From a virus (taxonomy: Duplodnaviria; Caudoviricetes): DNA of 64,000 nt. The DNA is taken from IMG/VR virus record IMGVR_UViG_3300029705_006902, positions 10,709-74,708 of that record; one strand, 5' to 3'. Each line of letters opens with the position of its first letter. The first letter of the stretch is position 1. A program made the translations under genes and the position numbers. The notes below the pieces were generated by a model. The model searched no databases. It was given only the letters and a program-made list of their open reading frames with translations, and was not told the DNA's origin. Positions 7,274 to 18,122 of the stretch are shown one piece after another.

Positions 7274-7651
7274 TTAGTAATAAAACGAAGTCGGCTCTTG
7301 ATTTGTCTTCATCCATTCATTACCGCGCAAGCTCTCTTTTACAGCGAGTGCAACATCATAAATAATACGTTTTTCACAGGTGTTGCAATCCTTGACAAGT
7401 TCGGTCAGCTCATTACAGTATTGCTTTTTGTCACTAACCTGGTTGCCATAAAGAAGTTGGTCAACAGTAATGCCGAGAACATTTGAAATGCGAACCAAAC
7501 TTTCGAGACTTGCTTTCTTGAGACCCGTTTCAATATGACTTATGTACGAAACGGAAAGGTCTGTAAATTCAGCCAAGTCCGCTTGAGACAATTGCTTCAA
7601 AATACGAACCTCCTTTACCCGTACACCTATCATTTTGTGGTTCAAAACCAT
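7274..7651 (-). CDS. Xre-family HTH regulator
   Basis: RBS AGGAGGT before ATG 7651; IGVRVKEVR...SQADLAE...SYISHIETG. Confidence 0.9.
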   Translation of the reverse strand: MVLNHKMIGVRVKEVRILKQLSQADLAEFTDLSVSYISHIETGLKKASLESLVRISNVLGITVDQLLYGNQVSDKKQYCNELTELVKDCNTCEKRIIYDVALAVKESLRGNEWMKTNQEPTSFYY

Positions 7652-7787
7652 ACTTTTTTCACCTCCTATCGTAAAATTATGATGCATTATAACTACGATA
7701 GTGGAAGATATCCAGTATAGTTTATTCTTTTTGTCGACTATACACGATATAATCTTGTATAGTGATAGTTTTTTAGGTGGTAATATT

Positions 7788-8132
7788 ATGGTAACTGATA
7801 GGAAAACATTAGGCAAACGAATACATGACGCCCGTAAGTCCAAAAAAATGAGTCAATTTGAACTTGCTGAAAAGGTTGACATCTCTATTTCACATTTAAG
7901 TAGTATTGAAAACGGGCGCACAAGTTTTGGGGTTGAAATATTTATGAAAATAGTTGAAGCCCTTGATATTTCTTCTGATGAATTGCTTCTCATCAAGACC
8001 CCCGCTGTAAAAGATATGTTGAACACTGAATTTGAAGAAATAATTTCTGATTGCAGTCCCGCAGAAGTAATTAGCATTTTGAAAATGGCAAAGGAAATGC
8101 GAGAAGCAATCAGGACGGCAAAATCAGAATAA
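7788..8132 (+). CDS. Xre-family HTH regulator (divergent paralogue)
   Basis: RBS AGGTGG before ATG 7788; LGKRIHDARK...SQFELAE...HLSSIENG. Confidence 0.9.
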   Translation: MVTDRKTLGKRIHDARKSKKMSQFELAEKVDISISHLSSIENGRTSFGVEIFMKIVEALDISSDELLLIKTPAVKDMLNTEFEEIISDCSPAEVISILKMAKEMREAIRTAKSE

Positions 8133-8251
8133 AACTTAATAAATGTATTTTGTTTAATAACCATAGGTATAGGAATGTACCTGTGGTTATTTTTCTTTTC
8201 TTCTTAACTAATGTACACTTTGATACATAAAAGTAAAACGGAGTGACTTAA

Positions 8252-10150
8252 ATGTTAAACAGTTCAAAACGGCTGCTCAAAGCCGAGCAGAAAGAAAAAA
8301 TCAGGCAGAGATATAGGGGCATGGACACATCCAATATGGAAGTAATTCCGGCTGAAGCTGCTCCCGATTTTTATGATGAAAAATTTAAACGAGTGGCAGT
8401 ATATGTTCGTGTTTCGACAGATAATATCCAACAAACCACCTCATTTGAAATTCAAAAGAATTACTATGAAGACATGGTTGACAAGCACGATAACTGGGCC
8501 TTGGTAGACATCTATGCCGATGAAGGTATTTCAGGTACTTCTTTGATGCATCGAGAGGCTTTTAATCAGATGATTGATGACTGCAAAGCTGGAAAAATCG
8601 ATTTGATAATTACAAAGAGCGTGTCCCGTTTCGCGAGAAATATCGTTGATTGCATTAGAATTGTAAGAGAGCTGTCCGAGATGAGAGACCCGGTTGGCGT
8701 TTTCTTTGAGACGGAGCACATATTTACTTTAAAAGAAGACACCGAAATGACGCTCTCGTTTCAAGCGGCTATGGCACAGGAGGAGTCTCATGCAAAGAGC
8801 CGCATAATGAACTCCTCATTAGAGATGCGATTTAGCCATGGTATTTTGTTGACCCCCGAACTTTATGGTTACCGCCATAACGAAGAAGGCAAATTGATAA
8901 TTTGTGAGGAAGAGGCACCCGTTGTACGATTAATTTTCTTTATGTATCTTTATGGTTATACGAGTCAGCAGATAGCTGATACACTAACTAAACTTGAAAT
9001 ATTAACCCCAAAAGGAAAAAGTGAATGGGCGTCAGGAACTGTTCTTGGAATTCTCCGCAATGAAAGACATTGTGGCGATGTTTTAACAAGAAAAACATAT
9101 ACACCTAATTATCTAAATCATAAATCTGTCAAAAACAGAGGAAATAAGACGCAGCATCTATGGAGAGAGCAACACGAGGGCATCGTTTCTCGTGACGATT
9201 TTATTGCCGTGCAGCACTTAATTAATAATGCTAAATACGGAAACAAAGGAATTCTGCCCGAATTAAAAGTAATCTCAAGCGGTGCATTAAAAGGATTTGT
9301 ATCCATTAATCCCCGATGGGGAGGTTTCACACGGGACGATTATTACGAGGCATCTGCGAGCGTTGTTCCGGATACCCCTACGCAAGATGAACCAATACAG
9401 GTAACTGCTAAATCAGGTGAGTTTGATTTGCGTGGTTTTGAAATTGCTCGGTCGCAGTTTTTCGATACCCAAGATAAAATGTGCATATCATTTTTCTGCG
9501 ACCATGTCACATTTTCTACATCGTGTATTAAAAAGTTCGACAAAAAAATGTATGTAGAAATCCTTGTCAATCCGGTTCAACATTTACTTGCAGTTCGACC
9601 TTGCGATAAAACTGTGAGGAATGCTCTCAAGTGGTCACGCCTTACCCCCGATGGTGATTATGTTCCGAAAGTAATCAGCGGAGCAGCTTTTATAAAAACC
9701 ATGTATGATTTGTTTGAATGGATCCCGGAATACCGATATCGAATAAGAGGTATAAAGAGAACAAAAGGAGATGAATCTATACTTATATTCGATTTAAAAG
9801 AAACAGAACTTTTCATCCCCAAAGCCGTGCTTGATGCCGAAACCCAAGATGCCGAACATAGCGATGTTACTCCGGTAATGCCTGATGTTCGTGAAAAAGT
9901 CGTAGCATATCCAAATGATTGGGCGGACAGCTTTGGTAGTGATTATTATTTGCACGCCCAAACAAATGAAACCCCTATGTGTATGGATGGCGAGGAAAAA
10001 TGGGAAAAAGCGGATGCAAAAAGCATACCTTTCATGCCAGAATTACAAGTTACGGCACCGAACGATATTGCAAACAATATTCAACAAATAATTAGTGATA
10101 TTAAAAACACAGCTTCCAAAGACGGAGCAGATTTAGGAGGAAATGAATAA
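8252..10150 (+). CDS. Large serine recombinase with atypical C-terminal domain
   Basis: YVRVST catalytic motif, YADEGISGT, SVSRFARN, recombinase domain. No CxxC zinc ribbon; about 250 extra C-terminal aa. Confidence 0.92.
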   Translation: MLNSSKRLLKAEQKEKIRQRYRGMDTSNMEVIPAEAAPDFYDEKFKRVAVYVRVSTDNIQQTTSFEIQKNYYEDMVDKHDNWALVDIYADEGISGTSLMHREAFNQMIDDCKAGKIDLIITKSVSRFARNIVDCIRIVRELSEMRDPVGVFFETEHIFTLKEDTEMTLSFQAAMAQEESHAKSRIMNSSLEMRFSHGILLTPELYGYRHNEEGKLIICEEEAPVVRLIFFMYLYGYTSQQIADTLTKLEILTPKGKSEWASGTVLGILRNERHCGDVLTRKTYTPNYLNHKSVKNRGNKTQHLWREQHEGIVSRDDFIAVQHLINNAKYGNKGILPELKVISSGALKGFVSINPRWGGFTRDDYYEASASVVPDTPTQDEPIQVTAKSGEFDLRGFEIARSQFFDTQDKMCISFFCDHVTFSTSCIKKFDKKMYVEILVNPVQHLLAVRPCDKTVRNALKWSRLTPDGDYVPKVISGAAFIKTMYDLFEWIPEYRYRIRGIKRTKGDESILIFDLKETELFIPKAVLDAETQDAEHSDVTPVMPDVREKVVAYPNDWADSFGSDYYLHAQTNETPMCMDGEEKWEKADAKSIPFMPELQVTAPNDIANNIQQIISDIKNTASKDGADLGGNE

Positions 10151-10857
10151 TGGATACATATATTAATGACCCTGTAGCTTTAGCCTTAAATGAAGAAAAA
10201 GCATCTGATACAAGAATTGAGATTATTGAAGACCCGGATTTTTCATATGAGGGATTCCAAGTTGTTCGTGGCGAGTTTTTTGCTCATATGTATGAGCCAT
10301 CTATAACATTTAATAACTGCAAGGTTTCTTTAAATACTGCGTGTATAAAGAAACTACCTGAGGTTGAGTATGTGCAGATACTTGTAAATCCCGAAACAAT
10401 GAAACTTGCAGTACGCCCCTGTAATGAGGATGATAAAGACTCATTTTTGTGGTGCAACAATAAGAATGGAAAACGCAAACCCAAGCAGATTACTTGCCGT
10501 TTGTTTTTTGCAAAGCTTGTAAGTTTGATGGGTTGGAATCCTAACTACAGATATAAGATGCTCGGCAAAATTATAAAAAGCGGAGATGATTTTCTTATCC
10601 TCTTCGACTTAAATGCAACCGAAATGTATCAGCGAACAGTAAAGGATGATGGTAAAATCAGAACCTCACGCACACCAATTTTTCCTGCTGAATGGCAAGA
10701 TCAGTTCGGTCTTCCGGTTGAAGAGCATCAAAAACTGTTGCAAGTTAATATATTTGATGGTTATACCGTTTTTGGAGTTCAGGAGAAAAAAGAAAACAAC
10801 GCACCCACTGCCGAACTTACAATAGAAAGTATTCCTGAAGGAGGGGAAAATGTATGA
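10150..10857 (+). CDS. Stand-alone paralogue of the recombinase C-terminal domain
   Basis: Alignable by eye to residues ~379-575 of the upstream recombinase (see findings). Confidence 0.75.
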   Translation: MDTYINDPVALALNEEKASDTRIEIIEDPDFSYEGFQVVRGEFFAHMYEPSITFNNCKVSLNTACIKKLPEVEYVQILVNPETMKLAVRPCNEDDKDSFLWCNNKNGKRKPKQITCRLFFAKLVSLMGWNPNYRYKMLGKIIKSGDDFLILFDLNATEMYQRTVKDDGKIRTSRTPIFPAEWQDQFGLPVEEHQKLLQVNIFDGYTVFGVQEKKENNAPTAELTIESIPEGGENV

Positions 10858-11243
10858 CAGCAGGATTACCGGCTTCATTGCTTGTGGATTTTTCAAAATT
10901 CAGAGTTTGCATACATACCAGGGTTCTGTCTGCTTTAGGCAATCCCGATTACATATTGCTTATGGTAAACCCAAACGAAAAGAGTATCGCAATTATGCGA
11001 GGCTCTGAAAAGTTTGCAGACACACATAGAGTTTCGTATAACAAATTGAAAGATGGTCGATGTTGCGAAATTTATAGTCGTTCTTTTGTAAAAAAATTAT
11101 TAGAGGTTTGTCCCGAATGGAGAGTAAAAAGCACCTACAGATTAAGTGGCGATGTGATTCAAGGAAAATCAATAGCTGTATTTTCAATGACAGGTGCGGA
11201 GGAATTACGAGTTAGCAAGGAGGCTGATATTGATGGTCAATGA
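10854..11243 (+). CDS. Shorter paralogue of the same domain
   Basis: Y-I-L-L-M-V-N-P...IAI and W...YRLSG motifs shared; ATGA overlap. Confidence 0.65.
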   Translation: MTAGLPASLLVDFSKFRVCIHTRVLSALGNPDYILLMVNPNEKSIAIMRGSEKFADTHRVSYNKLKDGRCCEIYSRSFVKKLLEVCPEWRVKSTYRLSGDVIQGKSIAVFSMTGAEELRVSKEADIDGQ

Positions 11244-12183
11244 GAGCCTCTATCTTAAAACCAACCCGGAATGGGAGCATTACATTTACCCGCTAACACC
11301 AAAAGAGGTAAAAGACCTACATAAAGAATTGGATGAAAAAGGTTATCAAGGAACTATTAAAGTTTGGAATCTTTATGTCTTAACCGACCATGAGGCCTTT
11401 GAATATTGCAAGAAAAATGATATATCATACCGCATCGAACACATAAAAGCCAAAAATATGGAAGAGGCACTTTTGTGGATTTGCAAATATGAACTTGCAA
11501 ATCGCAAATGGCTCCCTGAAGAAATGAAAAAATATTTGATTGGAAAAAGGTATATTTTTGAAAGGGTTCTTGGTGCTCACTCTCATATGGAAGCGAGAAA
11601 ACTTGCAAATAGGAATCCTAAATATAAACAGCAAATCGGGGGTACAAAGTATGATGAAACTGCAACCAGTACCAGACAAAGAATAGGTGCTGACTACCAC
11701 ATTTCATATGTTACGGTACGAAAATATGGAATTTACGCAGAAATGGTAGATACCATTATGGAAGTTTCGCCTGATTTGGCAAAAGGCATCATCAGCGGAA
11801 ATATTCGCATTTCACACGAAAATATGGAAGCTATCGTTTCTCTGCCCCCCAATGAAATAAGGACAGCAGCGGAAAAAATATTAACCGAGCATAAGAATAA
11901 TAAAAACTATTCAGCACCCCGTGAAATATTATTGCAAACCCCCGGATTTGAGAGTAAAACAATGCCTACAGTTGGCTTGATAAAAAATATGCCAGAATAT
12001 GACCCGGATGCAGAGGTTTCAAGCCTTACTCTGACAATTCCGATGTGGATAAGTTCTGTTAATAGAACTAAGGCAGCAACGGATATGACAAAGGTAAGCG
12101 CCCTGGCAAAAACACGATTAAAAAAAGCATTAAGAGAACTTAATAGTGCTATTCAATCAATGTATTCAGAAATAAAGGAGTAA
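11233..12183 (+). CDS. Degenerate ParB/Srx-like domain protein with HTH
   Basis: RBS AAGGAGG before ATG 11233; PLTPKE...KVWN..VLTDHEAFEYC...EEALLWICKYEL...KKYLIGKRY resembles phage ParB-N proteins, with DGHxR decayed. Confidence 0.6.
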   Translation: MVNESLYLKTNPEWEHYIYPLTPKEVKDLHKELDEKGYQGTIKVWNLYVLTDHEAFEYCKKNDISYRIEHIKAKNMEEALLWICKYELANRKWLPEEMKKYLIGKRYIFERVLGAHSHMEARKLANRNPKYKQQIGGTKYDETATSTRQRIGADYHISYVTVRKYGIYAEMVDTIMEVSPDLAKGIISGNIRISHENMEAIVSLPPNEIRTAAEKILTEHKNNKNYSAPREILLQTPGFESKTMPTVGLIKNMPEYDPDAEVSSLTLTIPMWISSVNRTKAATDMTKVSALAKTRLKKALRELNSAIQSMYSEIKE

Positions 12184-12188
12184 AAACA

Positions 12189-13130
12189 ATGGAAGATAAT
12201 ATCCAAGATTTATTTGAAAATACCGAACCGAGTGAAGATATTCTTGACTTGAGTTTGTTTATTCCCAATGTAAAATTTGAACTTATTCCAATTAAAAATC
12301 TTGTATCAAACCAGGATTATCAAAGAAATCTTTCTACCTCACATATCAGAAGAACCGTTGAGAGTTTTGATATTTATCAAGTAAATCCGGTAAAAGTTAG
12401 TAGGCGTGATGGTATAAATTATGTTTTCAATGGACAGCACACCATCGAAATAATCGCAGCGGTATCAAACTCCCGTGAGACCCCTGTATGGTGTATGGTT
12501 TACGATGATATGGATTACACAATGGAAGCCGATGTTTTTGCAAATCAGCAAAAATGCGTAAAGCCTCTCGTACCATATGAAATCTTTATGGCAAACCTTG
12601 AAGCGGGCAACGATATGCAGCTTATAATAAAAGACCTTGTTGAGTCCTATCAGTTGGTTATTGGGGCTACCAGGGGCATAAATACTATTTGTGCTGTTTC
12701 TTCATTAGAATACATTTATGAAAAATTCGGGTTTCATGTTCTTGACCGTACCCTTCGTCTTACCGTCAGCACTTGGGAAGGTGAACCGTACTCCTTGTCT
12801 TCAAATATGCTTAAAGGCATAGCTCGCCTTATTGTAGCTTTCGGTGACAAGTTGAGAGATGACCTTTTCAAGGATAAAGTTGGTATATATTCAGCGAAGG
12901 ACATTACTCGAACAGCAAAAGAAAGAGCATCCGGCTCTATGGGATATGCCGAGGCTATGCTTTTAGCTTATAATAAAAAGATGCGTTATCCATTGCGTTG
13001 GGCAAACCTATACTCCAACAAAAAGGCACATCTTCAAGAAACCTTTGAGTTTTCTTCTGCAAGTGATGATTATCAAGAAGCAGATGAAGTATCACTTGAT
13101 GACGCAGTTGAGGAGACTTTTGAAGATTGA
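12189..13130 (+). CDS. ParB/Sulfiredoxin-like protein (DUF6551-like)
   Basis: YQRNLS...VKVSRRDGINYVFNGQHT motif. Confidence 0.7.
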   Translation: MEDNIQDLFENTEPSEDILDLSLFIPNVKFELIPIKNLVSNQDYQRNLSTSHIRRTVESFDIYQVNPVKVSRRDGINYVFNGQHTIEIIAAVSNSRETPVWCMVYDDMDYTMEADVFANQQKCVKPLVPYEIFMANLEAGNDMQLIIKDLVESYQLVIGATRGINTICAVSSLEYIYEKFGFHVLDRTLRLTVSTWEGEPYSLSSNMLKGIARLIVAFGDKLRDDLFKDKVGIYSAKDITRTAKERASGSMGYAEAMLLAYNKKMRYPLRWANLYSNKKAHLQETFEFSSASDDYQEADEVSLDDAVEETFED

Positions 13131-13306
13131 AAATAAAGGTTATATTGCCAGTATCAGAGGAGGGAAAAGAAAAACTTTCACGAGCTATATGTAAAGCTCA
13201 TCTTGATATGGTAGTAAAAAACATTAACAAACTAAATATATCTTACGAGCTAAAGCTGAAACTGTTTGATGCCGTTTGTGAAGAAATACAAAGCCGAAAC
13301 AAGTAA
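13127..13306 (+). CDS. Small hypothetical protein (59 aa, not in the ORF track)
   Basis: TTG start overlapping the upstream TGA, AGGAG upstream; MKIKVILPVSEEGKEKLSRAICKAHLDMVV... Confidence 0.5.
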   Translation: MKIKVILPVSEEGKEKLSRAICKAHLDMVVKNINKLNISYELKLKLFDAVCEEIQSRNK

Positions 13307-13854: not shown

Positions 13855-15171
13855 ATGAAAAAGATAAGTAACACCCTTTCTTCTGCCTTGCAGTGGGCAT
13901 TTGCAGTATTGTGTTTTTTAGGTGTTTTAGTCTATGGTTTTACCTTTGGTAGCTTTTTGATTTTGCTTGCGGGACTTATAGCAATGCCGATTAAGCCTGT
14001 TAGAAAATTCTTGAGAGAAAAACTGAAGGTAAAAACACTCGTTGCTGTTCTTTTATCAATAGTTTTATTCGTTGGTGGCTGTATGGTTATGCCACAGCTT
14101 GAGACGGATGTTCCAATAGATGAAACAACAGTTACTACAACCGAAGAAGAAGAGCCAGCCACCACTGTTGCTCAAACAACCGAAGAGCTAACTTCTGAAG
14201 TTGCAACCACGGAAGAACCAACTACCGAACCAACTACCAAACCAACTACCGAACCAACTACCGAACCAACTACCGAAACAGCAACCTCCTCAATCGTAGC
14301 TAATAAAGAGAACTTAAGTTCAAATAAGGTTTCTGTTGCGGACATCCCCAATTTTTCTGGCAAAGCATATATAGCTGTAAATGGCAACAAACCATATTTC
14401 ACCGAGTCTGAAATAACCTCAAAAGCCTTTGAGACTTATACATCTCTTGACAGTAATGGAAGATGCGGTGTTGCGATGGCTTGCTGTGGTGCAGAAATAA
14501 TGCCGGGGCCCGGTGAAGAAAGAGGTAGCATAAGCAGCATAAAACCGTCCGGTTGGGTTCAAGCTCAATACGATTGTGTAAGTGGTAAATACTTATATAA
14601 CCGCTGTCATCTTATTGGTTGGCAGCTCTCCGCAGAAAATGCAAACAGAAGAAATCTTATAACCGGAACAAAATATCTGAATATTGAGGGTATGCTGCCT
14701 TTTGAAAATATGGTAGCCGACTACATAAACGAAACCGGAAACCACGTTATGTATCGAATAACCCCAATTTTCAAGGGTAACAATCTTGTAGCAAGTGGTG
14801 TGCAAATGGAAGCATACTCTGTCGAAGACGGCGGAGATGGTATTTGCTTTAATGTTTATTGTTATAATGTTCAGCCCGGAGTTGTGATAAACTATGCTAC
14901 GGGCAGTAGCTATCTTGAAGGTGGTTCTTCTGAAACCTCAACAAAAAAAGAAACAACCACTAAGGAAACAACGACAAAGGCCCCCACTACTACAAATAGC
15001 GGTAGCCATAATGTTTCAGCTTCATACATTCTTAATACGAATACGAAAAAAGTTCATTACCCCGGTTGTAGGTCCGTAAAACAAATGGCGGATAAAAATA
15101 AGCAAGAATATAATGGTAGCCTCGATGACATCTTGTCTCGTGGATATACAACTTGTGGGAACTGTTTCTAA
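13855..15171 (+). CDS. Membrane-anchored DNA/RNA non-specific endonuclease (EndA/Sda-like) with C-terminal Zn-binding domain
   Basis: N-terminal TM helices, Thr/Glu linker, NRCHLIG...N catalytic motif, C-terminal NTNTKKVH..GC...CGNC. Confidence 0.88.
   Translation: MKKISNTLSSALQWAFAVLCFLGVLVYGFTFGSFLILLAGLIAMPIKPVRKFLREKLKVKTLVAVLLSIVLFVGGCMVMPQLETDVPIDETTVTTTEEEEPATTVAQTTEELTSEVATTEEPTTEPTTKPTTEPTTEPTTETATSSIVANKENLSSNKVSVADIPNFSGKAYIAVNGNKPYFTESEITSKAFETYTSLDSNGRCGVAMACCGAEIMPGPGEERGSISSIKPSGWVQAQYDCVSGKYLYNRCHLIGWQLSAENANRRNLITGTKYLNIEGMLPFENMVADYINETGNHVMYRITPIFKGNNLVASGVQMEAYSVEDGGDGICFNVYCYNVQPGVVINYATGSSYLEGGSSETSTKKETTTKETTTKAPTTTNSGSHNVSASYILNTNTKKVHYPGCRSVKQMADKNKQEYNGSLDDILSRGYTTCGNCF
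14218..14277 (+). repeat. 12-bp tandem repeat x5 encoding a PTTE linker
   Basis: CCAACTACC(G/A)AA x5. Confidence 0.9.
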
Positions 15172-15215: not shown

Positions 15216-16796
15216 TTATATAGTAACTTCCGTTCCTCCTTTGAAGAAAAACTGCATCTTCTCATCGTGATATATTACAACCCTGTCAATCATATGTAAC
15301 CACAGCCTTTCATCAAAATCTGTGAGGGGCTCATCGTTTTCTTTTAACTGGAACATAAATGCGCCTATAGCTTCAGCTTGTTCTTCTTTACGCTGCCTTT
15401 CCGCTTCAAGGGATTTAAGGCTTTTTACGGCTTTGGAATGCCTTGTTTCAAGTTTAGAATACTTGTGGGAAAACTCCTCCTGGTCTTGCGCCTTCATAGT
15501 ATTTTCTATTATTGCTTTTTTTATAAGTTCTTCTATTATTTCTATGTCCGAATACAACTCCTCGATTTTTTCATCAATTTCAGTTGTATCGGTTAGTACT
15601 TCTTGCATAATTCTGCAGTTTTCAAGCAGCTCATCACGCTGTGAAAGGAGTTTATTAAAAGCTGTAATAAAGGCAGTACGTATTGCTTCTTCATCCAGGT
15701 GCGATGTGCTGCAATGCTCACCATTTTTGAATTTATTATTACATTGCCATATTGTTCTTCGGTATTTACTGTTAGAGTGCCATACCTTTGAACCATAGTA
15801 ACCACCACAATCACCGCAAACTATGCGAGTTGAAAAAATGCTGTTACCACTGTAACTTTTTCCCATTTCTTTTCTTCTCTTTAATTCCAGTTGAACTGCT
15901 TCGAAGATTTCAGGGGAAACAATAGCTTCGTGGCTGTGTTCAATATAGTACTGCGGAACTTCGCCTTCATTCTTTTTCATTTTTTTCGTAAGGAAATCCA
16001 AGGTATATTCCTTTTGCAATATTGCCGAACCTTTGTATTTTTCATTCTGCAAAATGCTTGAAATTGTGGAAGGACGCCATTTGGTTTTTCCCGCCGGTGT
16101 AGGTATCCCTTCTTGGGTTAAAATATTTGCTATCATACAAGGAGTTTTTCCATTCAAGAATTCCTTGTATATTCTTCTCACAATTACTGCCTGGCTTTCG
16201 TTAACTATTGGAAAATCACCATTACCTTTTTCAAACCCAAGGAAGTGGCTATACGGAAGTGTAACCTTACCATCGGCGAATCGCTTTCTTTGGCCCCAAG
16301 TAATATTCTCGGAAATTGACCTGCTTTCTTCCTGTGCAATTGAGGACATAATTGTTATAAGAAGTTCACCGCTTGTGTCGAGGGTATGGATGTTTTCTTT
16401 TTCAAAAAACACCTCAACACCGATTTCCTTAAGCGTTCTAACGGTTGTAAGAGTATCAACGGTATTTCTTGCGAATCTACTAATTGATTTGGTTACAATG
16501 AGGTCGATTTTGCCTGCTTCAGCATCATCTATCATTTCTTGAAATCCGTATCTCTTTTTAATGTTCGTTCCTGAAATACCCTCATCGGTGTATACTTTTA
16601 CGAAATCCCAGTCTTCATGGGAATTAATATAGTTAGTGTAATAATCTATTTGGGCAACATAACTCGTTTTTTGTTCCTCGCTGTCAGTTGAAACACGAGC
16701 GTAAGCTGCAACCTTTCTTCGTTTGTTTTCAGCTAATAATCTTCTTGTTTTTGGGTCTTTTATGGCTGGTATTATCTGAACTATTCTTTCTTTCAT
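15216..16796 (-). CDS. Large serine recombinase (integrase)
   Basis: YARVST, SISRFARN, recombinase domain, CGDCG zinc ribbon, coiled coil. Confidence 0.95.
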   Translation of the reverse strand: MKERIVQIIPAIKDPKTRRLLAENKRRKVAAYARVSTDSEEQKTSYVAQIDYYTNYINSHEDWDFVKVYTDEGISGTNIKKRYGFQEMIDDAEAGKIDLIVTKSISRFARNTVDTLTTVRTLKEIGVEVFFEKENIHTLDTSGELLITIMSSIAQEESRSISENITWGQRKRFADGKVTLPYSHFLGFEKGNGDFPIVNESQAVIVRRIYKEFLNGKTPCMIANILTQEGIPTPAGKTKWRPSTISSILQNEKYKGSAILQKEYTLDFLTKKMKKNEGEVPQYYIEHSHEAIVSPEIFEAVQLELKRRKEMGKSYSGNSIFSTRIVCGDCGGYYGSKVWHSNSKYRRTIWQCNNKFKNGEHCSTSHLDEEAIRTAFITAFNKLLSQRDELLENCRIMQEVLTDTTEIDEKIEELYSDIEIIEELIKKAIIENTMKAQDQEEFSHKYSKLETRHSKAVKSLKSLEAERQRKEEQAEAIGAFMFQLKENDEPLTDFDERLWLHMIDRVVIYHDEKMQFFFKGGTEVTI

Positions 16797-18097
16797 CTGT
16801 GTGCTCCTTTTCTCATCAATTCAGCTTGTCTTGCTCTTTCTTTCATTTCAGGTGTCCAACTGTCTTTTCGTGAAATAGGGACCCAGGTTTTCGTGACCGC
16901 ATCTCCGTTTTTTAAGAAAAAAACTACTTTATAGTTATTTTCAATTTTAATTTGCTTAATCTGTGCCTTGATGTATTCTTCGTCGAAAAAATCTATACCC
17001 AGGATATCCAAGGTTAAGGTTTTCAGCGTCTCTTCCGGGATAGCCTTTGAAGCACAGATGCTTTTTCCTTTGGTGTTATAAGTGTTGCAAATATAAACTA
17101 CTCTTTTGCTCGTCACTTTTCTTCTATAGGTGTCACCGCAGTTGCCACAAACAAGCAATCCCGAAAAAGTATAAAGGTTCTTTTTTCTTCCCTTTGGTGA
17201 ATGCTTGTCAGCTCTCCGTATTAATTCTGCTTGAACCAGGTCAAATTCTTCCTGGCTGACAATAGCCGGATGACTGTTTTCAACATAATATTGCTGCTTT
17301 TCACCATTGTTATATACTTTTTTCTTTGTGATGTGGTTTTCTATGTATGTTGTCTGCAACATCAAATTTCCGGTATAAGAAAGGTTTTGAAGAATGCACC
17401 TTACGCTTGATTTACCCCAGGGTTTCTCATGTCTTGTTTTTGCTCCTTGTAAATTCAGCGTTTGGGCTATAGCTTCAAGCCCCATACCATCAAGGAAAGA
17501 AGTGAAAATAAACCTTACTGTTTCAGCTTCTTTTGGTTCAATTTCAAATTCACCATTTTTACATCTGTAGCCGAGCATTGTGCAGTTCCAGGGCAGTCCT
17601 TTTTCAAAATTCTGCTTCACCCTCCATTTTTGGTTTTGGCTCACAGAAAGACTCTCTTCCTGGGCAAACGATGCAAGGATGGTGAGGAGCAATTCTCCAG
17701 CACCACTCATTGTATGAATGTTCTGTTCTTCAAAAAACACATCAACACCGAGTTCTTTTAGCTCTCGAACCGTCTGCAATAAGGTCAGCGTATTGCGAGC
17801 AAATCGTGATATGGACTTGGTTACTATCATATCAATTTTTCCTTTTCGGCAGTCATCAATCATCCTCTGAAACCCTTCACGATTAACCTTTGTACCGCTG
17901 ATTGCTTCATCGGTATAAATTCCGGCAAAAGACCATTCGGGGTTGGACTGTATGAAACTGTTATAATAACTGATTTGTGCTGCCAAAGAATGAAGCATTG
18001 CATCTTTACCAGAAGACACCCTGGTATACGCAGCAACTTTCTTTAGCCTTGCAATGCTCAATGTATCAAACGCTACCCGTTCAATTACTCTTTCCAT
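16793..18097 (-). CDS. Large serine recombinase
   Basis: YTRVSS, SISRFARN, CGNCG zinc ribbon; RBS AGGAGGT. Confidence 0.95.
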   Translation of the reverse strand: MERVIERVAFDTLSIARLKKVAAYTRVSSGKDAMLHSLAAQISYYNSFIQSNPEWSFAGIYTDEAISGTKVNREGFQRMIDDCRKGKIDMIVTKSISRFARNTLTLLQTVRELKELGVDVFFEEQNIHTMSGAGELLLTILASFAQEESLSVSQNQKWRVKQNFEKGLPWNCTMLGYRCKNGEFEIEPKEAETVRFIFTSFLDGMGLEAIAQTLNLQGAKTRHEKPWGKSSVRCILQNLSYTGNLMLQTTYIENHITKKKVYNNGEKQQYYVENSHPAIVSQEEFDLVQAELIRRADKHSPKGRKKNLYTFSGLLVCGNCGDTYRRKVTSKRVVYICNTYNTKGKSICASKAIPEETLKTLTLDILGIDFFDEEYIKAQIKQIKIENNYKVVFFLKNGDAVTKTWVPISRKDSWTPEMKERARQAELMRKGAHR

Positions 18098-18122
18098 CAA
18101 AAATCACCTCCTTGGTATGACA

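Follow-up and report, generated by a model that had tools for sequence, protein, structure and literature searches.

A five-gene module around a serine recombinase without a zinc ribbon

The locus described here lies in the virus record IMGVR_UViG_3300029705_006902 of IMG/VR (Duplodnaviria; Caudoviricetes), which is 74.7 kb long and of which a stretch of 64,000 nt (positions 10,709 to 74,708 of the record) was analyzed and is called the window below. Six open reading frames (ORFs) on the plus strand at positions 8252-13306 of the window, each touching or overlapping its neighbour, start with the gene for an unusual serine recombinase (REC) and continue with two paralogues of the C-terminal domain of that recombinase (paralogues 1 and 2, or PA1 and PA2), a ParB-fold protein (P4), a DUF6551 protein (ParBL) and a 59-aa ORF. 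The first five of these genes are a conserved set of temperate elements of Clostridia, that is, of Heliusvirales-type prophages and of small integrative islands, and are referred to as the module. Coordinates are those of the window unless a locus label (L with a number) is given.

8252-10150, plus strand: REC, serine recombinase of 632 aa, composed of Resolvase, Recombinase and a novel C-terminal domain, without zinc ribbon or coiled coil
9419-10006, plus strand: tail domain of REC (aa ~390-585), homologous to PA1 by BLASTP and HHalign and to PA2 by HHalign
10150-10857, plus strand: PA1, 235 aa, a free-standing, full-length copy of the domain, with one base in common with the REC stop codon
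10854-11243, plus strand: PA2, 129 aa, a free-standing, core-only copy of the domain, its start overlapping the PA1 stop codon by 4 nt
11233-12183, plus strand: P4, an orphan ParB-fold protein with an N-domain, a helical DNA-binding region and a conserved C-terminal motif; the ORF is open from a GTG at 11194
12189-13130, plus strand: ParBL, a DUF6551 ParB/Srx-like protein with an NGQH motif
13127-13306, plus strand: 59-aa ORF, outside the conserved module and with no family matches

REC matches Pfam Resolvase (PF00239) over aa 48-187 (E = 2.2e-24) and, after a long E-helix, the Pfam Recombinase domain (PF07508) over aa 219-325 (E = 4e-22), and it shares these two domains, including the RVST serine motif of the former, with the large serine recombinases (e.g., those of phiC31, Bxb1, TP901-1 and A118, SprA of SPbeta, and CcrA/CcrB of SCCmec). 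Residues R53, V54, S55 and T56 are invariant in 48 orthologues, and R53, S55 and T56 together with an SRFARN motif are invariant or almost so across 48 to 73 REC orthologues, the catalytic half of the protein being far less variable than its tail. With its catalytic motif invariant, REC should be able to cut and rejoin DNA. What sets REC apart from the large serine recombinases is the remainder of the protein, where no match to Zn_ribbon_recom (PF13408) was obtained at E values up to 0.1, no CxxC pairs occur (aa 326-632), and a ~200-aa domain, predicted to be a barrel, stands in for the zinc ribbon and coiled coil. The first-pass annotation, which was made from the sequence only, had described a catalytically intact recombinase that misses its zinc ribbon, and both parts of this description hold. 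In known large serine recombinases, the zinc ribbon and coiled coil set att discrimination, synapsis control and direction. REC further differs from these enzymes by its fixed partners, i.e., two copies of its own tail domain that have no catalytic domain and two ParB-fold genes, and no separate small recombination directionality factor is evident beside it.

The best NCBIfam matches of REC are CcrB, CcrC and CcrA, all well under their cut-offs, and we rejected an assignment to CcrA/CcrB on the basis of the scores (90.8 bits against a cut-off of 900 for CcrB and 53.3 bits against 700 for CcrA). We also rejected REC as a small serine resolvase or invertase; the Recombinase domain of the large enzymes is retained, and we found neither a helix-turn-helix (HTH) nor a res-like subsite array nor an inverted partner. 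REC does resemble the small resolvases (Tn3/gamma-delta res, Sin, beta recombinase) in joining a catalytic serine domain to a non-zinc, putatively DNA-binding domain and in having a single palindromic element just upstream of its gene, although the latter carries a U-tract and may be a terminator only. The extra subunits of the module, which are predicted to bind DNA, could build a synaptosome of the resolvase kind. In some lineages (L010-L020, L089 and L093), an additional gene of 190-230 aa is found just upstream of REC that encodes a resolvase catalytic domain only, ~30% identical to REC aa 47-160.

The tail domain of the recombinase recurs in the next two genes

BLASTP aligned REC 390-562 with PA1 30-187 at 32% identity (E = 1e-27) and PA1 with PA2 at E = 1e-7, and gave a weak match between REC and PA2 (E = 0.06). 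Profile-profile comparison with HHalign, based on family alignments of ~70 orthologues for each protein, connected all three pairs: PA1 with the REC tail (99.9%, E = 1e-35, 189 columns), PA1 with PA2 (98.2%, E = 3e-14), and PA2 with the REC tail (98.1%, E = 1e-13). Hence, the earlier alignment by eye, according to which the C-terminal domain of the recombinase recurs in the next gene and its core in the third, is backed by significant profile similarity throughout. PA2 corresponds to the bare core, and the conserved N- and C-terminal extensions around this core are common to PA1 and the REC tail. No other protein of the module is as well conserved as PA1, whose orthologues are 50-76% identical across Bacillota and whose domain family counts 2528 relatives (clusters) at 90% clustering and 2052 representatives at 50% clustering (E up to 1e-3).

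An AlphaFold2 model of PA1 built from 61 sequences showed a block-mean predicted local distance difference test (pLDDT) value of 90 or more over residues 50-160, and DSSP assigned to the model the order beta-beta-alpha-beta-beta twice in succession (first unit: E51-55, E58-61, H63-68, E74-80 and E85-91; second unit: E102-105, E108-111, H117-127, E134-144 and E147-160). The first-pass annotation had raised the possibility of an AbrB/MraZ-like barrel, and this order of elements is in agreement with it, as is the top match of an exhaustive structural search against 48,161 chains, MraZ (1n0e); however, the Z score of 4.0 (root-mean-square deviation of 7.4 over 101 residues) is within the noise range of the method, as are the values of 2.5-3.0 for the plant B3 DNA-binding domains that rank next. 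Foldseek returned no match in the PDB for the PA1 model at E up to 0.001, a search of the PDB sequences with the PA1 profile gave no match either, and the two halves of the barrel are dissimilar in sequence (hhalign E = 0.35), so an internal duplication was rejected at the sequence level. On these three grounds, i.e., Z scores in the noise range, no PDB match and dissimilar halves, we consider the MraZ/AbrB-like identity to be a lead and not a result. A sliding-clamp fold, suggested by a few weak Foldseek rows (TM ~0.1), was not credible, and the matches of the model in BFVD are uncharacterised phage proteins only. The swapped-hairpin barrels of MraZ, AbrB and SpoVT and the pseudobarrels of plant B3 and EcoRII-N all bind DNA. 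PA1 is likened to them by the predicted double beta-beta-alpha-beta-beta within one chain and by its (weak) top solved matches, and differs from them in that its family has conserved N- and C-terminal extensions of its own.

A variant of the module was found on a metagenomic contig (L113:1055-5462), where the gene of a canonical zinc-ribbon recombinase is followed by an overlapping gene for a 359-aa protein, a PA2-like gene of 137 aa, and then an unrelated gene of 349 aa. In the 359-aa protein, a Resolvase catalytic domain is fused directly to a PA1-like domain at the place where small resolvases carry their HTH. This arrangement is a hint, independent of the structural comparisons, that the PA1-like domain may be a DNA-binding module of serine recombinases.

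Two ParB-like proteins complete the module

The two genes that follow PA2 had been called ParB-like at first sight, and the assignment proved right for both, P4 having the ParB fold and ParBL belonging to DUF6551. The P4 protein probably starts at the ATG at 11233, where the Atlas record of the protein begins (residue 14 of the ORF). Its AlphaFold2 model (pLDDT 90.3) was matched by Foldseek with a probability of 1.0 (E of 7e-4 to 1e-2) to Spo0J (1vz0), pNOB8 ParB, the ParB proteins of Myxococcus and Caulobacter, KorB and Noc, and a strongly conserved C-terminal motif lies in a disordered linker before a helical hairpin. ParBL matches Pfam DUF6551 with E = 1.1e-25 (90.9 bits, the cut-off being 26.8, over positions 4-234 of a profile of 242) and PHROG 1033, 'ParB-like partition protein', with E = 2e-11, in addition to a weak DGQHR match. 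A comparison of the P4 and ParBL profiles detected no similarity between them (E = 0.46).

Among the orphan ParB-CTPase-fold proteins (KorB, Noc, DndB/DGQHR and DUF6551 fusions), P4 thus matches the ParB N-domain and DNA-binding region, and ParBL the DUF6551 type. We rejected both proteins as canonical ParABS CTPases; they are without the GERRxR box II (DGHNRYE or TDHEAFE in P4 and NGQHT in ParBL), they have no PF02195 match, and there is no ParA gene in the module, which also distinguishes it from the resolvase-plus-ParB maintenance logic of plasmids. DGHNRYE is the consensus of the P4 family at the position where canonical ParB has its arginine box. In the P4 of the window, this box is lost and reads TDHEAFE (11350-11400, aa ~52-60), the remainder of the protein, including the C-terminal motif, being conserved; together with the missing ParA, and with no parS-like site identified, this loss separates the window copy from the orphan proteins listed above. 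Phage DUF6551 fusions bound CTP or ATP in the screen of a ParB-fold survey (bioRxiv 10.1101/2025.10.10.680097).

Conservation and spread of the module

ORFs were called in all 100 loci that were fetched from collections of viruses and genomes. In ~100 loci, the order REC-PA1-PA2-P4-ParBL holds as far as the contig extends, with PA2 in every locus that reaches its position. The 59-aa ORF, on the other hand, is present among the 100 loci only in a near-identical locus of a metagenome-assembled genome (MAG; L021), and the conserved unit is therefore one of five genes, not six. That is, the first five genes of the six-gene operon proposed by the first-pass annotation are widely conserved in order, and its sixth gene has to be dropped.

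Relatives of PA1 were confirmed, by a back-translated pattern scan, in 245 stretches of a one-genome-per-species collection, the majority of which are from Clostridia and other Bacillota, and in 18 further viral contigs. DNA similarity yielded 24 phage records, nearly all of them 'Ca. Heliusvirales' gut phages. Cultured bacteria that carry the module include Coprococcus comes MSK.16.63, Blautia luti MSK.16.34, Anaerocolumna sp. MB42-C2 and Clostridium sp. KNHs205. The carriers differ in kind, being either phages of 50-60 kb or islands of ~17.6-22.4 kb, and only part of the Heliusvirales records carry the module; others have a shorter zinc-ribbon-less recombinase in the same place. In one such module-less phage (PV036430.1, L108:949-2578), the position is taken by the gene of a 399-aa zinc-ribbon-less recombinase, 43% identical to REC aa 29-356, and by a 145-aa gene after it, a layout like that of orf2 of phi1207.3 (below).

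We found no PA1, PA2 or module ParB genes in cultured phages, no match to the module in a DNA search of plasmids, and no meaningful match of any of the six proteins to the PADLOC defence models. In the literature that we searched, no paper describes the module, in line with the earlier remark that no characterised system of this kind was known, and the description of the Heliusvirales does not discuss it. Every component belongs to a known superfamily, and it is the combined module that appears to be undescribed.

Immunity region and a conserved hairpin upstream of the module

The module is preceded by the following features of the immunity region.

7274-7843, minus strand: Cro/CI-type HTH regulator, divergent from the module (Pfam HTH_3, 1.9e-13)
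7701-8132, plus strand: Cro/CI-type HTH regulator immediately before the module (Pfam HTH_3, 1.9e-13; weak Phage_CI_repr); the coordinates are those of the listed ORF, and translation probably starts further downstream
8156-8201, plus strand: hairpin with a 16-bp stem and a T-tract between the HTH gene and REC, from a terminator scan

The equivalent of the plus-strand HTH gene is annotated as 'transcriptional repressor' in phage PV036434.1, and an HTH regulator gene flanks the module upstream in nearly all loci. In 42 of the 62 distinct loci, REC is preceded by a hairpin that folds at -12 kcal/mol or stronger and has a T-rich tail. Alignment of 30 loci gave a consensus stem of 15 pairs, of which 12 show compensatory changes; several positions are invariant, and the stem sequence is partly conserved (RAACCAY..GG / CC..RTGGTTY). 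We read the hairpin, from these features, as an intrinsic terminator/attenuator that gates the module, in which case the module is probably made only after read-through; it may also be a protein-binding palindrome. An att site for integration it is not, since the palindrome is intact in integrated elements and occurs once per window.

Element ends and the other recombinases

The prophage of the window carries, besides REC, a pair of canonical large serine recombinases (LSR2 and LSR3), which the first-pass annotation had not noticed.

15216-18100, minus strand: LSR2/LSR3 pair (15216-16796 and 16793-18100), overlapping canonical large serine recombinases of 526 and 435 aa, after the lysis and tail genes

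The module is the sole plus-strand block of the prophage and lies between the divergent HTH genes and this convergent zinc-ribbon pair. A near-identical prophage is found on a 170-kb contig of a Clostridia MAG from goat caecum, on which REC and the zinc-ribbon pair are the only recombinases, with no tyrosine recombinase. LSR2 and LSR3 both match Pfam Resolvase, Recombinase and Zn_ribbon_recom (PF13408; 4e-11 and 3e-12), and REC is 41% identical to LSR2 and 38% identical to LSR3 over ~300 aa; hence, the three proteins are paralogues. The pair is likely the integrase pair of the prophage. The same three-recombinase layout is known from phi1207.3 of S. pyogenes, in which the zinc-ribbon-less orf2 is located in the left arm and the overlapping zinc-ribbon pair orf56/57, to which LSR2/LSR3 correspond, after the lysis genes at the right end; this phage inserts in comEC, and its authors tentatively give excision/integration to orf56/57 (PMC4260502). 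The likeness extends to Tn1207.1 (and phi-m46.1-type phages) and, for the insertion in comEC, to the Blautia-type relatives described below, but orf2 differs from REC in that it has 370 aa (Resolvase and Recombinase only) and no barrel domain. We also considered REC and LSR2/LSR3 as a serine-recombinase triplet of the kind found in integrative and conjugative elements and rejected it; REC is on the opposite strand, 5 kb away and with seven genes between, whereas the streptococcal and clostridial triplets consist of three adjacent genes in the same orientation at the element end (PMC4701971).

At 2215-2226, contigs of four independent metagenomes either break off or diverge, the flanking letters being different in each, and this places the left end of the prophage 6 kb upstream of REC. 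Mu-like transposition, considered on account of the different flanks, was rejected given that relatives insert site-specifically in comEC or in the gene of a type II secretion system (T2SS) ATPase, and the breaks could be due to variable DNA. Four motifs resembling TAGGGGGTTGCAA, at intervals of 20-22 bp, are located at 2259-2328, i.e., ~40-110 bp inside the left end, and include the inverted repeat at 2258-2308 that the first-pass annotation had proposed for excision/integration assays. A connection of this repeat with the recombinase is not supported; the repeat belongs to the left-end array, 6 kb from REC, and nothing links it to REC. Outside 2259-2328, counts of TAGGGGGTTGCAA are at chance level, the array is absent beyond the window, and exact-pattern scans for it in viral and metagenome contigs found none. 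The motifs may be end-binding or operator sites.

Junctions were mapped in three lineages of relatives, namely the T2SS-ATPase islands, the comEC prophages and the Anaerocolumna/Herbinix prophages. The islands interrupt a T2SS/ComGA-type ATPase gene at a single, conserved motif and were found in Coprococcus, Blautia, Dorea, Anaerostipes, Muricoprocola, Bilifractor, Faecalicatena and others. Their far junction is flanked by three tandem tyrosine recombinases in all 11 of the 11 genomes; in the Coprococcus comes island, the only one annotated, DUF6262 and TnpV genes follow these recombinases. A stretch within the island that resembles an element end (3 mismatches in 17 nt) may be a chance match and was left out of account. 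Blautia-type Heliusvirales prophages split comEC at a G-L-H-I-S coding motif with an ATATG core, the junction being located 4.2 kb upstream of REC and the zinc-ribbon pair behind the module. The right end of a comEC-inserted prophage (L110:1629-1763) holds a comEC-like fragment of ~135 bp with stop codons, which may mimic attP or have been captured from the target gene. In the Anaerocolumna and Herbinix prophages (L052/L040), similarity between the two ends just after ParBL, and the zinc-ribbon pair of the former is found at a distance of ~53 kb, close to the other prophage end. Streptococcal relatives have the zinc-ribbon pair alone, at the prophage end. Hence, every well-resolved element that carries the module has another recombination module as well, either the zinc-ribbon pair or the three tyrosine recombinases.

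What the module may do

Since a second complete recombination module is present in every well-resolved element, an accessory role is favored for the module, and a role as the primary integrase is unlikely. Our preferred interpretation, which we hold tentatively and with less than even confidence, is that of an accessory 'third recombinase' module for a second DNA transaction on the element rather than for primary integration. Specifically, the beta-barrel would replace the zinc-ribbon/coiled-coil region of REC as its DNA-binding domain, and PA1 and PA2, as copies of the domain without the catalytic part, would either bind DNA sites of the same class as REC does or attach to the REC tail. Their role would be an architectural one or one in directionality, similar to that of the accessory subsites in resolvase synaptosomes or of a directionality factor. 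The ParB-fold proteins, both of them orphans, would be NTP-gated DNA binders that organize the substrate by marking or condensing it. The module would be transcribed from the immunity region, gated by the terminator hairpin and thus made after read-through, and the reaction could serve to resolve or segregate the circle after excision or during replication, or to control excision. The best solved matches of the barrel model being DNA-binding folds (MraZ and B3, with the Z scores given above) lends weak support to this interpretation. A bolder version, to which we give only a small chance, is a multi-subunit serine recombination machine in which free-standing paralogues of the DNA-binding domain set site and direction in place of the zinc ribbon/coiled coil and a directionality factor, and in which two NTP-binding ParB-fold clamps couple recombination to the loading or condensation of the substrate; such a machine could allow reversible, lysis-independent excision from comEC or from the T2SS/ComGA-like ATPase gene.

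Several observations weigh against an accessory role, and most of them are what would be expected if the module itself were an integration/excision system, primary or alternative, in which REC recombines an adjacent attP with a site in a conserved host gene, PA1/PA2 replace the directionality logic of coiled coil and directionality factor, and the ParB-like proteins help in synapsis. In the T2SS-ATPase islands and in the Anaerocolumna/Herbinix prophages (L052/L040), only 0.1-0.5 kb separate the last module gene from the element junction (0.46 kb in the islands), which is the place expected for the attP of an integrase; more generally, the module is always within 6 kb of an element end. The island junctions share 3-4 bp only (3-5 bp for the junction cores overall), and the reconstructed attP is near-palindromic, which is more in the manner of serine than of tyrosine recombinases. 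The insertions in the target genes, T2SS ATPase and comEC, fall on conserved coding motifs, which is a typical choice of serine integrases, the catalytic conservation of REC would be accounted for, and on one 450-kb contig REC is the only recombinase, although this element may be cut by the contig end. The evidence for an accessory role is also thinner than the number of genomes suggests, because the 11 islands are 87-99% identical and, as one recent lineage, count as a single evolutionary observation. In addition, no obvious replication genes were found among the ORFs scanned in the small island, so a role in resolution or partition is not self-evident there; no substrate site was found, and the palindrome upstream of REC has no second copy in the 64-kb window; and the assignment of the barrel fold is weak. 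We nevertheless consider integration by the module to be unlikely, albeit a serious contender. Besides the second recombinase set, the junctions of the window and of the comEC prophages are 4-6 kb upstream of REC, beyond another operon, the streptococcal relatives integrate with the zinc-ribbon pair alone, and REC is without the two parts, zinc ribbon and coiled coil, on which the att discrimination and synapsis control of large serine integrases depend.

Alternatively, the module might be a regulatory or exclusion device of the lysogen, with the MraZ/AbrB-like and ParB/KorB-like proteins as silencers or superinfection-exclusion factors and REC acting on a switch or on incoming related DNA. 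MraZ, AbrB, KorB and Noc are DNA-binding regulators, and the folds of the module proteins match such regulators, weakly for the barrel and clearly for P4. Location in the immunity region behind an HTH regulator would suit this role, as would the high conservation of PA1, which suggests a constrained target, but a strictly conserved catalytic serine recombinase is needless for pure regulation, and a module behind a terminator hairpin is not expected to be expressed constitutively in the lysogen. With, moreover, no inversion joints in the module region on contigs from the four metagenomes and no match to the known defence families of PADLOC, we regard this alternative as improbable. Even less credit, that is, a very slim chance, is given by us to the five genes, HTH gene and hairpin being a self-mobile serine-recombinase cassette that hops between phages and islands as a passenger and not as a functional part of its carriers. 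This would explain why the same module occurs in unrelated carriers (phages of 50-60 kb and islands of 18-22 kb) and why only some Heliusvirales records have it, with the shorter zinc-ribbon-less recombinase at the same place in others; yet no terminal repeats or target duplications flank the module, its position relative to the immunity genes is always the same, and the island and phage proteins that were compared have diverged (73% identity for REC and 51% for P4), which also argues against a very recent transfer between island and phage.

Large serine recombinases are major tools of genome engineering, and to our knowledge the zinc-ribbon/coiled-coil architecture is the only one for which it is understood how they recognize their sites and how direction is controlled. 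The module represents a widespread natural alternative, with a different, predicted DNA-binding domain that is duplicated in the form of separate subunits and always accompanied by two ParB-fold proteins. It is carried by gut prophages of a very common type (Ca. Heliusvirales) and by islands inserted within competence genes. Therefore, the function of the module bears on how such elements are maintained or excised, on the role of the orphan ParB-like proteins of phages, and on whether the specificity of a recombinase may be programmable via detachable subunits.

Other features of the prophage and its surroundings

The right end of the prophage is beyond the window, and the DNA found there is still mobile-looking up to an intact tRNA-Leu gene. 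To the left of the prophage, at 2036-2086, there is a 51-bp copy of the 3' end of tRNA-Leu(TAA) with its downstream hairpin, and the intact tRNA-Leu(TAA) gene (L103:17734-17849) is located ~77 kb rightward in the MAG contig, past HTH genes and genes for a Y-family polymerase, HIRAN, IrrE and a C5 methylase. The prophage may be inside, or part of, a larger tRNA-bounded island.

In the host flank, the 1.2-kb segment at 295-1531, which comprises a TetR gene and the gene of a giant surface protein, is inverted in a contig of metagenome X12, with four letters common at the joint; this is a real inversion polymorphism adjoining the prophage. Between the 59-aa ORF and the zinc-ribbon pair, a gene at 13855-15171 encodes a 438-aa non-specific-endonuclease-like protein and contains, at 14142-14298, a 12-nt tandem repeat (a Thr/Glu/Pro-rich linker) and a GAA run. 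The lengths of the repeats in this gene vary between metagenomes, with deletions of 24 and 36 nt and insertions of 3, 6 and 9 nt.

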